From NCBI RefSeq assembly GCF_053078305.1, contig NZ_CP166879.1: a DNA stretch of 64,000 nt. The stretch is one strand, 5' to 3'. Position numbers and translations under genes: made by a program. Below the pieces are notes generated by a model. The model did no database searches. It was not told where the DNA came from and worked only from the letters and a program-made list of their open reading frames with translations. Positions 18,976 through 23,227 of this stretch are shown here, piece after piece. Numbering within the stretch: position 1 is the first letter of the stretch; every line of letters begins with the position of its first letter.

Positions 18976-19512
18976 TTAACTGCGCGGGTAATGGATGAGG
19001 GAATGAAAATGTACGGTTTGCTCCCCACCATTACGATAGATATGCGTGACGTCTGCAGCAAATCGAACGCCTTCCCCACAATTAAGGCTCTGCCATTCAC
19101 CATCAACGCACAGATCAAGTTGTCCATCAATGACGACGACATGTTCGATTACCCCCTTCTCATGGGGCGTCGATTCGCTTATTGCACCGGGTGCCATCTG
19201 AATCGAGAAGTGTTCAAAGCAGAGTTGTGGATCATAAGGAAACAGCGAAATGATCACCATCGCCTGCTGTTGTGGATCATAAACTGAAGGCGTAGCGGAC
19301 TGTGGCGGAGAAATAAATGTCGAAAATGGCACGTTCAACCCAGTGGCAATTTTCCATAATGTCGCGACCGTCGGGCTGGACTCATTACGCTCAATCTGTC
19401 CTAACATTGCTTTAGAAACGCCCGTCGCTTCTGCCAGTCGCGAAAGACTCCAGCCGCGCTGCTGACGTAGTTGTTTAAGTGTGGTGGATAAAAAGCGAGC
19501 GAGATTTTCCAT
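18976..19512 (-). CDS. ydcN: XRE-family HTH regulator with C-terminal cupin domain
   Basis: 178-aa ORF; HTH LKQLRQQRGWSLSRLAEATGVSKAMLGQIERNES. Confidence 0.88.
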   Translation of the reverse strand: MENLARFLSTTLKQLRQQRGWSLSRLAEATGVSKAMLGQIERNESSPTVATLWKIATGLNVPFSTFISPPQSATPSVYDPQQQAMVIISLFPYDPQLCFEHFSIQMAPGAISESTPHEKGVIEHVVVIDGQLDLCVDGEWQSLNCGEGVRFAADVTHIYRNGGEQTVHFHSLIHYPRS

Positions 19513-19603
19513 GCGACTCCTCCGGCAAAACGGAAGTTTATCACTTGTGCGTTATAACGGACAAATGCTACGGTGCCTGTACGCTATAACGCACGAGGTG
19601 ACT

Positions 19604-20779
19604 ATGCGTCTGTTTTCTGTTCCCCCACCCACGCTACTGGCGGGGTTTCTGGCGGTATTAATTGGCTACGCCAGTTCAGCGGCAATAATCTGGCAAGCAG
19701 CGATTGTCGCCGGAGCCACCACTGCACAAATCTCTGGCTGGATGACGGCGCTGGGGCTGGCAATGGGCGTCAGTACGCTGACTCTGACATTATGGTATCG
19801 CGTACCTGTTCTCACCGCATGGTCAACGCCTGGCGCGGCTTTGTTGGTCACCGGATTGCAGGGACTAACACTTAACGAAGCCATCGGCGTTTTTATTGTC
19901 ACCAACGCGTTAATAGTCCTCTGCGGCATAACGGGACTCTTTGCTCGTCTGATGCGCATTATTCCGCACTCGCTTGCGGCGGCAATGCTTGCCGGGATTT
20001 TATTACGCTTTGGTTTACAGGCGTTTGCCAGTCTGGACGGTCAATTTACGTTGTGTGGAAGTATGTTGCTGGTATGGCTGGCAACCAAGGCCGTTGCGCC
20101 GCGCTATGCGGTAATTGCCGCGATGATTATTGGGATCGTGATCGTTATCGCGCAAGGTGACGTTGTCACAACTGATGTTGTCTTTAAACCCGTTCTCCCC
20201 ACTTATATTACCCCTGATTTTTCGTTTGCTCACAGCCTGAGCGTTGCACTCCCCCTTTTTCTGGTGACGATGGCATCGCAAAACGCACCGGGTATCGCAG
20301 CAATGAAAGCAGCCGGGTATTCGGCTCCTGTTTCGCCATTAATTGTATTTACTGGATTGCTGGCACTGGTTTTTTCCCCTTTCGGCGTTTATTCCGTCGG
20401 TATTGCGGCAATCACCGCGGCTATTTGCCAAAGCCCGGAAGCGCATCCGGATAAAGATCAACGTTGGCTGGCAGCTGCCGTTGCAGGCATTTTTTATTTG
20501 ATCGCAGGTCTGTTTGGTAGTGCTATTACCGGGATGATGGCTGCCCTGCCCGTAAGTTGGATCCAGATGCTGGCAGGTCTGGCGCTGTTAAGTACCATTA
20601 GCGGCAGTTTGTATCAGGCGCTGCATAATGAGCGTGAGCGAGACGCGGCGGTGGTGGCATTTCTGGTAACGGCAAGTGGATTGACGCTGGTCGGGATTGG
20701 TTCTGCGTTCTGGGGATTAATTGCCGGAGGCGTTTGTTACGTGGTGTTGAATTTAATCGCTGACAGAAACCGATATTGA
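19604..20779 (+). CDS. ydcO: BenE-family inner-membrane transporter
   Basis: ORF 19481..20779; start set at ATG 19604 (MRLFSVPPPTLLAGF) preceded by gaggtg SD; 391 aa, polytopic. Confidence 0.85.
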   Translation: MRLFSVPPPTLLAGFLAVLIGYASSAAIIWQAAIVAGATTAQISGWMTALGLAMGVSTLTLTLWYRVPVLTAWSTPGAALLVTGLQGLTLNEAIGVFIVTNALIVLCGITGLFARLMRIIPHSLAAAMLAGILLRFGLQAFASLDGQFTLCGSMLLVWLATKAVAPRYAVIAAMIIGIVIVIAQGDVVTTDVVFKPVLPTYITPDFSFAHSLSVALPLFLVTMASQNAPGIAAMKAAGYSAPVSPLIVFTGLLALVFSPFGVYSVGIAAITAAICQSPEAHPDKDQRWLAAAVAGIFYLIAGLFGSAITGMMAALPVSWIQMLAGLALLSTISGSLYQALHNERERDAAVVAFLVTASGLTLVGIGSAFWGLIAGGVCYVVLNLIADRNRY

Positions 20780-22525
20780 CATCCTCCACGCCCTGAAGGA
20801 CGTGGATCCCTGCTACGTTCAGGCTGTCGCCTGAATCATTTCGGTGGGTTCCTGCTTCAACGGGCGGCCTGACTGCACCATCTCTCCACAGGCAAGAACG
20901 GCGTGCCCCGCCGCTAAAATGTTACGAGCGCCATTTACATCGGCGTTCGCTGTATATCCACATACCTGGCATCTGAATTTACTTTGTGACAGGCGGTTCT
21001 CTTTCGCTGTATGACCACAGTACGCGCAACGCTGGCTTGTATACGCTGGCGGAACAGCAAGCACCTGACCGCCACGCCAGAGCTGCTTGTACTCAAGCTG
21101 GCGGCGCATTTCATACCAGCCCTGATCCAGTATCGAACGGTTTAAACCTGATTTTGCCCGGACATTGCGCCCCGGCTGGCTGACCGTACCCGCTGCTGAC
21201 TTTGACATGTTGCTGACCTTCAAATCCTCAATGACTATCATTGCGTGGTTTTTGCTGACGGCCGTTGTGACTTTGTGAAGGTAGTCCCTGCGGATATTTG
21301 CGATACAGGAATGCAGTCGCTGTATTTTGCGTTTCTGCTTCTGCCAGTTGTTGCTGAATTTGACCTTGCGGCTTAACTGTCGCTGAAGTCTCGCCAGCGT
21401 CTTCTGGTTTTTCTGAAAACTGTTTACAGGCTCAAAGACTGTGCCATCTGACAGCGTGGCGAGTTTAGCCACGCCAGCATCCAGCCCGACCATTGATGCT
21501 GAAGGGTGAGCCGGAGTGGATACTTCACTTTCTGTCTGAATACTGATGTACCACTTACCGCAGGACTGGCTGACAGTGACATTTTTCACAACACCCGTGA
21601 CCTGACGGCTATTCCGGTAGCGCATCCAGCCCAGTTTCGGCAGAAAAATACGGCTGTTTTCCTGATCGAGCTTAACGCCCTGCGGGTAGCGGAATGCATC
21701 ATTCTGTCCCCGCTTTTTGAATCGGGGAAAAGCAGCCCGCTTCCGGAAGAAGTTTTTGTAAGCCCGCTCAAGGTCTTTCAGTGACTGTTGCAATGGCTGT
21801 GAGGGAGAATCTTTAAGCCATTGCGTTTCAGTGGCATTTTTCCACTCAACCAGCCAGGAAGCCATTTTCCCGTAAGGGATGTATTTATTACCGGCCTCAT
21901 GATTCTCATTCTGACGTGCCAGAGCACGATTGAAAACGAAACGACATGCGCCTGCGAAGCGCCTCATTTCACACTCCTGTTGACCACCTGGTCTTAACTG
22001 GAATTTAAATGCCTGTAATCGTTTCACAGGTCAAATGATACTTTGGTCTGTGAAAAAAGAAACCGATATCCGGCGTGGAAGGCATTGTGTTTTCCTGATG
22101 CATGTTCACCTGGTCTTTGTCACCAGATACCGACGCCAGATTTTTGACCATGACGCGACAGAAAAACTACGCACTTACTTTTCAAATGTATGTGCTTATT
22201 TTGAAGCTGAACTGGTTGAAATGGATGGCGAACCAGATCACGTCCATTTGTTAATTAACTAACCTCCCAAACTGGCGATATCCAGTCTGGTAAACAGCCT
22301 CAAAGGCGTATCGGGTAGGTTACTGCGACGAGATCGACCAGATATTGCAGTCAGGTATTACTACAAAGGCGTTTTGTGGAGTCCTGGCTATTTTGCCAGT
22401 AGCTGCGGAGGTGCGCCAATATCCGCCATCCGTCAATACATTGAACAACAGCAAACACCTGGTCAGGTGGAAAACCGCGCCTTATATCCCCGCCCTGAAG
22501 GATGGGGTTTTACGGCGCACCGGAT
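20780..22525 (-). mobile_element. IS200/IS605-family insertion sequence (IS609-like), tnpA and tnpB divergent
   Basis: Divergent tnpB (20819..22027) and tnpA (22035..); subterminal imperfect hairpins sharing loop ccctgaagga near both ends (20785..20806 and about 22485..22505); no terminal inverted repeats, as expected for this family; boundaries approximate. Confidence 0.75.
20819..22027 (-). CDS. tnpB: TnpB (IS605 OrfB-family RNA-guided nuclease, OMEGA effector)
   Basis: 402-aa ORF; Ruv[17 protein letters not shown], Ruv[11 protein letters not shown], zinc finger CAYCGH...CQVCGY, Ruv[14 protein letters not shown] all present; N-terminus [13 protein letters not shown] typical of TnpB. Confidence 0.9.
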
Positions 22526-22541
22526 AAAAAGCGCCATCTAA
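22035..22541 (+). pseudogene. tnpA: IS200-type Y1 (HUH) transposase TnpA interrupted by in-frame TAA
   Basis: N-terminal 75 aa ends ...EPDHVHLLIN then TAA at 22260..22262; the same frame continues PPKLAISSLVNSLKGVSGRLLRR...SPGYFASSCGGAPISAIRQYIEQQQ, matching the TnpA C-terminal half; 3' boundary uncertain. Confidence 0.75.
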
Positions 22542-22550
22542 CGATGGCGC
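22526..22550 (-). terminator. Intrinsic terminator of ydcL
   Basis: gcgccatc-gtta-gatggcgc hairpin followed by T5 on minus strand, 9 bp after ydcL stop. Confidence 0.6.
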
Positions 22551-22558
22551 GTCTGGAA

Positions 22559-23227
22559 CTACTTTTTGTTAACGTCAAACATGGTGGCATCGGTCGCCAT
22601 GTCATCAATAACTTGTTTAATATTTTCGAAAGCCATTGGCGTACTTTCGTTATTCAGGTCTTTACCTTCGCCCTGACGAACGACTTTGATAACCGGTTTA
22701 TTAGTCGCTGCATCAATCAGCTCACCTTCAAAATAGAGGCGAGTATCCATGGTACGGTGGCCTGTAGCCATTTGCGTCCCCGCAACCACTAATGCAACAG
22801 GAACCACTTCATAGAATTGCAGCCCTTCTTTGCTGGTATCTACACCGGTAATGGCCCCACGGAAAATCAGACTACGCGGCCCAGCGGTGGTAACCACTGG
22901 TTTACGCTGCGCTATCGCTTCTTTCATTTCGGTGTTGGTATAGTTCAAAATTTTATCCAGAACTTTCTGCCCTACCTGGGTAGAAGGTTTTGGTACCGGA
23001 TAATAAGTGATTGGGTTCCAGACGATGCTGTCATATTTGCTTTGATCAAAACTCGGGTCTACCCAACGTAAAACAGGTTTACCTGTTGCTGAGGTTGTTT
23101 CTTTTAAATCAGAGTAATTGTTTAAAAAACCAGAATATTTATCTGGCTGGGTGATTTTAGAGGCACAACCAGACAGAGCCAACAAGCCGCATAAAGCTGC
23201 AACTTTCGCAAATGATGTGGTACGCAT
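22559..23227 (-). CDS. ydcL: Lipoprotein YdcL
   Basis: 222-aa ORF; lipobox LALSGC after signal peptide. Confidence 0.88.
   Translation of the reverse strand: MRTTSFAKVAALCGLLALSGCASKITQPDKYSGFLNNYSDLKETTSATGKPVLRWVDPSFDQSKYDSIVWNPITYYPVPKPSTQVGQKVLDKILNYTNTEMKEAIAQRKPVVTTAGPRSLIFRGAITGVDTSKEGLQFYEVVPVALVVAGTQMATGHRTMDTRLYFEGELIDAATNKPVIKVVRQGEGKDLNNESTPMAFENIKQVIDDMATDATMFDVNKK

Follow-up and report, generated by a model that had tools for sequence, protein, structure and literature searches.

We analysed a 64,000-nt stretch of DNA (one strand of contig NZ_CP166879.1, assembly GCF_053078305.1; hereafter the window) in which open reading frames (ORFs) and Pfam matches place an IS200/IS605-type insertion sequence between the convergent genes ydcO and ydcL, as a first-pass annotation made from the letters alone had proposed. 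The element is IS609 (insQ/insP), a catalogued Escherichia coli member of the IS200/IS605 family with an already known mechanism; what we add are its base-exact ends and a cut through the ydcO stop codon. The copy is complete (20776..22523, minus strand, 1748 bp), as delimited by empty-site alignment and by the end bases that it shares with other copies, and its active top strand is the minus strand of the window. It carries tnpB (insQ; 20819..22027, minus strand), which is intact and encodes 402 amino acids (aa), and, in divergent orientation, tnpA (insP; 22035..22466, plus strand), which is a pseudogene. The flanking genes, identified by ORF and Pfam match, encode a BenE-family transporter (ydcO; 19481-20779, plus strand) and a DUF3313 lipoprotein (ydcL; 22559-23227, minus strand).

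The name IS609 rests on RefSeq/PGAP-annotated copies as the reference; PGAP names the tnpA of the O157:H7 copy 'IS609 family'. The window copy is 98.0% identical to the O157 copy over 1753 bp, 99.1% identical to that of K-12 and 99.9% identical to that of strain DSM 103246, and we regard the IS609 of K-12-type and O157:H7 genomes as the same element (98–99% nucleotide identity). RefSeq gives the same arrangement for K-12-type genomes (ydcO, insQ, tnpA as a pseudogene, ydcL), and K-12 derivatives carry the element at the same ydcO–ydcL position. The K-12-derived genomes among the matches listed (DH5a, DH1Ec169 and Sel(0 hit star)) have one matching place each, indicating that the ydcO–ydcL copy is their only one.

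Ends, target and the ydcO stop codon

The ends were read from two alleles without IS609 at ydcO–ydcL, those of strains PA45B (L001) and ATCC 25922 (L002), in which the site reads ...ACCGATA|ATAAAAAGCGCC... (over a longer span, ...GACAGAAACCGATA|ATAAAAAGCGCCATC...). The match between the occupied and empty alleles ends at 20775 on one side and resumes at 22524 on the other, and the empty site is the exact sum of the left and right flanks, that is, the target-site duplication is zero. Because the bases flanking the two junctions differ, the ends at 20776 and 22523 are unambiguous. On the top strand, the junctions are GCGCTTTTTAT|CCGGTGCGCC...(element)...GGATGTCAA|TATCGGTTTC; the termini CCGGTGCG... 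and ...GGATGTCAA, read directly, are unrelated, and terminal inverted repeats are absent. IS609 sits directly 3′ of 5′-TTTAT (22524..22528, minus strand), an unduplicated target and transposon-adjacent motif (TAM) that overlaps the last few bases of the T-tract in the ydcL terminator and was identified from the empty alleles, four independent sites and relatives. At all four independent E. coli insertion sites, 5′-TTTAT adjoins the left end and the element terminates on the right in ...GTCAA; the other three sites lie within a TetR-family gene between ytfB and yjfZ, within a DUF3251 gene near nrdR and in the hslO–yhgE gap. The first-pass annotation had supposed an insertion without target duplication, which the empty-site alleles bear out, and had proposed the comparison with strains lacking the element; this comparison defined the exact ends and the TTTAT target, and moved the right boundary by 4 bp from the 20780 given there.

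IS609 interrupts the TAA stop codon of ydcO after its second base. Empty alleles end in AAC CGA TAA and occupied alleles in AAC CGA TAT TGA; in the remodelled end (20774..20779, plus strand), the last base of the new Tyr codon TAT (T20776) and the whole of the TGA (20777-79) belong to IS609, the new TGA being the complement of the terminal TCA(A). The YdcO protein now ends in ...R-Y-stop with one Tyr gained, and the annotated coding sequence (CDS) has grown from 1212 nt (empty allele) to 1215 nt (occupied allele). The earlier description of the element as flush with both gene ends therefore applies to ydcO, which the element overlaps, its right end at 20776 not just touching the stop codon but containing it. 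It does not apply to ydcL, from the stop codon of which the left end (22523) is separated by 35 bp, with the terminator in between. The intrinsic terminator of ydcL (22526..22550, minus strand; stem 22531-38/22543-50, T-tract 22526-30) is host DNA outside IS609. Its stem-loop (22531-22550; −10.3 kcal/mol, z = −4.4) is identical in the empty alleles and remains whole between the left end and ydcL; measured from the left end, the T-tract is 2 bp and the stem 7 bp away, in agreement with the few base pairs originally estimated. With regard to the other end of ydcO (window 19481-19680), PGAP chooses three alternative start codons depending on the genome (CDSs of 1176, 1215 and 1230 nt), and the window sequence allows an ORF of up to 1299 nt.

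Both ends carry transposition signals on the same strand. The left end (22467..22523, minus strand), characterized by DNA folds and by target/guide covariation in relatives, contains the hairpin CCCCATCC-TTCA-GGGCGGGG (22488-22507) with an AAAA guide tetranucleotide (22508-22511) on its 5′ side. Folding of the right end gives the subterminal hairpin TCCACGTCC-TTCA-GGGCGTGGA (20785..20806, minus strand; 9 bp, TTCA loop, −7.7 kcal/mol), which is followed by GGATGTCAA (20776-20784), ending in the cleavage site TCAA. Relatives from other species have TTTAT or TTTAC as the target, with unrelated flanks, and the final base of the target changes together with that of the guide (T with AAAA, C with AAAG) in about 15 of 17 cases, matching the CL/GL pairing rule of IS608, in which TTAC goes with AAAG (PMC3201880). 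Of 67 relatives, 63 keep the right terminus; in these relatives from other species, sequence similarity stops exactly after GTCAA and gives way to random flanks.

The left-end hairpin, with its TTCA loop, folds at −10.5 kcal/mol in the window compared with −18.0 kcal/mol in the O157 copy; the window hairpin has an A-C mismatch and the O157 hairpin one additional outer-stem base pair. The left arm is CCCCATCC in all ten ydcO–ydcL alleles that we compared and CCCCGTCC in other E. coli copies. We considered this G>A change as an inactivating lesion and set the idea aside, as the A-type hairpin is also found in the most closely related elements, those of Escherichia sp. MOD1 and Citrobacter amalonaticus; the A variant may be tolerated.

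GC skew on the plus strand of the window is negative throughout (cumulative, −0.76), which puts the top strand of IS609 on the G-rich strand, the lagging-strand template. A preference for this template is expected of the IS200/IS605 family (PMC8612924, PMC5027513), and the placement is consistent with it, as a single case rather than a proof. The lack of duplication, TTTAT and GTCAA at four sites, same-strand end hairpins and the lagging-strand template support the single-strand peel-and-paste transposition invoked in the first-pass annotation. The closest model is IS608 of Helicobacter pylori, which likewise has a Y1 HUH TnpA and hairpins at both ends, and inserts 3′ of a short target that is not duplicated. 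In both, left cleavage is 3′ of the target, outside the element, and right cleavage follows TCAA, 9 nt past the hairpin in IS609; the guide tetranucleotide lies directly 5′ of the left hairpin (AAAA or AAAG in the IS609 group, AAAG in IS608). The spacings are 16 and 9 nt in IS609 and 19 and 10 in IS608 as counted in PMC3201880. The two elements differ in target (TT(T)AT in IS609, TTAC in IS608) and in gene arrangement (divergent tnpA and tnpB in IS609, co-directional and overlapping genes in IS608), and the tnpA of the window copy, unlike that of IS608, is inactive.

Transposase decay beside an intact tnpB

The tnpA pseudogene was identified from Pfam Y1_Tnp matches of both its interrupted halves (model positions 1-58 and 60-121 of 121) and by comparison with the intact O157 copy. 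The latter encodes 143 aa and terminates in a TAG that corresponds to window 22464-66; its product matches transpos_IS200 (NCBIfam NF033573) at 145.7 bits and the TnpA structures of IS608 and ISDra2 (E = 7e-19 to 2a6m). The window copy has an in-frame TAT>TAA change at 22260-62 (Y76), different from the K-12 lesion, a stop at codon 96, and, relative to O157, a TAG>CAG stop loss at 22464-66. Because of the stop loss, the tnpA frame crosses the left end and continues to a TAA at 22539-41 in the terminator loop, which is the extended TnpA frame that had already been seen to run into the terminator. Because of the premature stop, autonomous transposition is not expected.

By contrast with tnpA, tnpB is intact, as judged by Pfam, NCBIfam, structure and residue comparison. 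Its product matches the Pfam families OrfB_IS605 and Cas12f1-like_TNB, scores 380.6 bits against guided_TnpB (NCBIfam NF040570; cut-off, 100) and matches the ISDra2 TnpB structures 8bf8, 8exa and 8h1j over its full length (E = 2.7e-55). The RuvC triad (D183/E267/D363) and the zinc finger (C334/C337/C353/C356; CxxC...CxxC) are both present. The divergent start codons of tnpB (GTG, 22027) and tnpA (ATG, 22035) are just 7 bp apart (22028-22034), so that the promoter of each gene must lie inside the other; a sigma-70 scan for these promoters found no credible candidate for either gene, the one match in the region scoring below the shuffle mean. Among the relatives collected, a 2057-bp contig of Streptomyces mutabilis JCM 4400 (L027) encodes a TnpB 81% identical to the enterobacterial one and is probably assembly contamination.

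The difference between the two genes extends to the occupied alleles of ten diverse E. coli strains. All ten have an intact 402-aa tnpB and share the TAG>CAG stop loss in tnpA, the inactivating tnpA lesions otherwise varying by lineage: the TAA at codon 76 in the window and L008–L010, a stop at codon 96 in K-12 and L012, a 5-bp deletion in L009 and L010, and a 1-bp deletion in L013–L015, leaving L011 with the stop loss as its sole lesion. Judged from these sequences, tnpA has been broken independently at least four times among the ten alleles. Were disruptions to strike the two genes according to their length, the probability of finding all four in the 432-bp tnpA and none in the 1209-bp tnpB would be about 0.005. 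The site-based ratio of non-synonymous to synonymous change is 0.34 for tnpB (0.29 pairwise), about 0.9 for tnpA, 0.25 for ydcO and 0.05 for ydcL. Synonymous diversity is similar in tnpB (0.028) and in the flanking ydcO (0.021) and ydcL (0.024), indicating that the copy has been resident for as long as the compared lineages have diverged. The right end and the 3′ region of tnpB are almost invariant among the ten alleles, with 1 single-nucleotide polymorphism (SNP) in 142 nt. Separately, a copy at another locus (L005:601-2354; E. coli 54214, in the DUF3251 gene near nrdR) has the same TAT>TAA and TAG>CAG changes but a G-type left hairpin, a combination suggestive of a dead copy having been mobilised in trans or, alternatively, of gene conversion among copies.

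To estimate prevalence, we searched complete E. coli genomes by megablast with a 300-bp empty-site sequence. The query is uninterrupted in 2044 of the 5416 matching genomes, the median genome having two matching places, and all six split matches among the 12 listed break at query position 126|127, which is the insertion point. We infer that ~62% of complete E. coli genomes carry IS609 between ydcO and ydcL and that ~38% have an empty site. O157:H7 belongs to the latter, with IS609 elsewhere. Occupancy was not taken from the 4310 genomes with at least 80% coverage, because IS609 copies elsewhere (as in O157) also reach 90% coverage. Divergent-type IS605 elements have been reported in 90.9% of E. 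coli genomes (PMC9956272 survey).

A predicted guide RNA at the right end

The 3′ end of tnpB and the right end together are predicted to form an omega (right-end) RNA scaffold of seven helices (20776..20914, minus strand), as judged by RNAalifold, its controls and weak Rfam matches. Among 24 relatives of the same architecture (58–94% protein identity), the RNAalifold consensus for the terminal ~140 nt of the top strand has 34 pairs, 18 of them compensatory, at −46.9 kcal/mol. The named structure is paired in 96.6% of cells compared with 40–54% when partners are slid, a figure somewhat favoured by deriving the structure from the same alignment; doubly changed pairs number 18 compared with 3–6, and none of 500 shuffles reached the observed pairing values. 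Three of the helices fall within the coding sequence of tnpB, farther in than the right subterminal hairpin. In IS608, recognition by the transposase is of the subterminal hairpin (PMC3201880), and the coding-region helices thus point to a role at the RNA level.

When all 61 right-end tails were folded together by RNAalifold, hardly any structure emerged, as inserted hairpins in β-proteobacterial relatives break the MAFFT alignment. These extra hairpins (for example in L043, L053, L052 and L075; A2 columns 60-86 and 191-275) sit in the loop of the right-end hairpin and in the RAGATH-18-like stem, indicating that the RNA scaffold tolerates modular expansion at two fixed points. In an Alcaligenaceae metagenome relative (L083:2690-3100), a group II intron (RF02001, 101 bits; RF01998, 45.9 bits) splits the right end just after ...GGGGAGGATGT and would deprive that copy of its guide-RNA 3′ end.

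Sub-threshold Rfam matches at the right end, all on the minus strand, are to HgcC (E = 0.055), RAGATH-18 (E = 0.18) and sot0042 (E = 0.37), families that have been tied to tnpB 3′ ends (PMC4615843, PMC11061315). The IS609 RNA shares with this group a UUCA-loop hairpin and a CCUGU...GCAGG closing stem on the same strand and in the same place; unlike its members, it scores 17–25 bits against gathering scores of 45–88 (in the order RAGATH-18, HgcC and sot0042: 25.4 against 44.9, 22.2 against 50 and 17 against 88) and is not a member by Rfam standards.

In the TnpB model, the RNA runs 16–20 nt beyond the right end (PMC8612924; 10.1101/2023.03.14.532601). Applied here, this model (PMC8612924) predicts a guide segment of 16–20 nt, 5′-UAUCGGUUUCUGUCAG... 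(20756..20775, minus strand), which is flanking DNA antisense to the last codons of ydcO. The first-pass annotation had foreseen that read-out transcription would be antisense to ydcO; this is correct by geometry, and such read-out is in fact what a TnpB guide RNA would be expected to include. Sense-overlapping transcripts from the 3′ end of tnpB have been reported in RNA-seq of E. coli K-12 (PMC4615843). TTTAT followed by the 20-nt flank (TTTAT-TATCGGTTTCTGTCAG) is present in the empty allele of L001 and nowhere in the window, so that a TnpB complex would cut only the vacated site.

The likeness to the TnpB–right-end RNA system of ISDra2 (Deinococcus radiodurans) comprises full-length TnpB homology, a structured RNA that covers the right end together with the 3′ end of tnpB, a flank-derived guide and a TAM identical with the transposase target (PMC8612924). 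IS609 differs in its TAM (TTTAT, rather than TTGAT in ISDra2) and gene order, and its RNA and activity are read from sequence. With intact RuvC and zinc-finger residues, a structured RNA and a flank-derived guide, tnpB and the scaffold appear to constitute an OMEGA system; RNA expression, nuclease activity and a role in homing would follow by analogy.

A probable resident copy and its alternatives

We consider it highly probable that the window holds a resident, non-autonomous IS609 that was inserted by TnpA at TTTAT, the tnpA gene of which has since decayed and the tnpB/RNA module of which has been preserved. The Y1 transposase would have inserted a single-stranded circular IS609 3′ of 5′-TTTAT on the lagging-strand template. 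As this TTTAT is the end of the terminator T-tract and overlaps the TAA of ydcO, insertion split the ydcO stop codon, and the terminal TCAA would have supplied the substitute TGA after one added Tyr. The copy would then have descended vertically to roughly 60% of E. coli genomes and, tnpA having decayed repeatedly, it cannot excise by itself. Transcription through the right end would continue for ~16–20 nt antisense into ydcO and, by analogy with ISDra2 and Geobacillus, that segment would serve as the guide; TnpB with its RNA would cut only the TTTAT-flanked empty site, restoring IS609 by recombination after any excision. The cut in the ydcO stop codon, the dead tnpA and the tnpB/guide-RNA module, which is the functionally relevant part, had all been overlooked by the first-pass annotation.

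Several points weigh against this account. RNA expression and cleavage by InsQ are argued from analogy, no Rfam family is matched at its gathering score at the right end and the sigma-70 scan predicted no tnpB promoter. The contrast in substitution ratios between tnpB and tnpA comes from few sites (37 and 20 SNPs) in ten alleles. Furthermore, with tnpA dead, homing would lack a substrate in the absence of a TnpA acting in trans, which leaves the apparent constraint on tnpB partly unaccounted for.

The last of these points would be answered if the copy were still mobile, with TnpA from another IS609 copy acting in trans and keeping TnpB homing under selection. The copy retains a hairpin and a cleavage site at each end, some E. 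coli (O157 among them) carry IS609 with an undamaged tnpA, tnpB is apparently constrained and the TAA nonsense codon of the window copy recurs at a different locus in L005. However, K-12-type genomes that have this copy as their sole one nevertheless keep tnpB intact, the left hairpin, with its A-C mismatch and without the additional outer-stem pair of O157, folds at −10.5 rather than −18.0 kcal/mol, and the junction is identical in the ten occupied alleles and in every split match listed; we therefore regard continued mobility as rather unlikely. The copy could instead be an inert, decaying remnant in which tnpB is whole merely because too little time has passed, as its low diversity (about 3% variable sites) and a tnpB/tnpA ratio contrast based on few SNPs, without demonstrated significance, would allow. 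But the synonymous diversity of tnpB equals that of the flanks, making the copy as old as the lineages compared, and the absence of any disrupting lesion in tnpB contrasts with four independent ones in the much shorter tnpA, so we consider an inert remnant quite improbable.

Domestication of InsQ and its RNA for a host function, either regulation of ydcO through the antisense guide or action on other targets, has a precedent in domesticated relatives of TnpB (10.1101/2023.11.30.569447). It would accommodate a tnpB intact in all ten alleles beside a tnpA broken four times, as well as the near-invariant right end and tnpB 3′ region. Nevertheless, InsQ retains its RuvC triad, and the known domesticated TnpB regulators are nuclease-dead. 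In the occupied allele, moreover, the guide match is preceded by GTCAA instead of TTTAT, so that no TAM-licensed binding would be expected there, and roughly 38% of E. coli genomes do without the insertion. We judge domestication very unlikely. Least credible is that the terminator hairpin itself, rather than a short motif, directed the insertion: IS609 does lie immediately 3′ of a stable hairpin and T-tract, and its transposase family binds single-stranded hairpins, but the three other E. coli sites have only TTTAT in common, the relatives have TTTAT or TTTAC in unrelated flanks, and the last target base covaries with a guide base inside the element. Terminator-directed targeting was rejected on the first of these grounds, and the terminator-proximal insertion stressed in the first-pass annotation is thus a real adjacency that is incidental to TTTAT: elsewhere in E. 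coli, IS609 lies inside a gene at two sites (the TetR-family and DUF3251 genes), the third, in the hslO–yhgE gap, not having been checked for a terminator.

For annotation, the gain from the resident-copy account is that the ydcO stop codon and last residue of K-12-type strains are known to come from IS609, that the ends of the element are exact to the base and that the extended tnpA frame is accounted for; beyond such annotation hygiene, these corrections are of little importance. The wider question is whether IS609 here represents a fixed, transposase-less TnpB/guide-RNA module under purifying selection across most E. coli lineages, which at present we think unlikely. If true, InsQ would have a role independent of its own TnpA, candidates being protection of the locus, work with the TnpA of other copies, or a host function at the 3′ end of ydcO. 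Repeated tnpA decay beside an intact tnpB and RNA scaffold, at one fixed locus in ~3,400 genomes, may amount to a natural experiment, and makes ydcO–ydcL a tractable case for asking why tnpB persists without its transposase.

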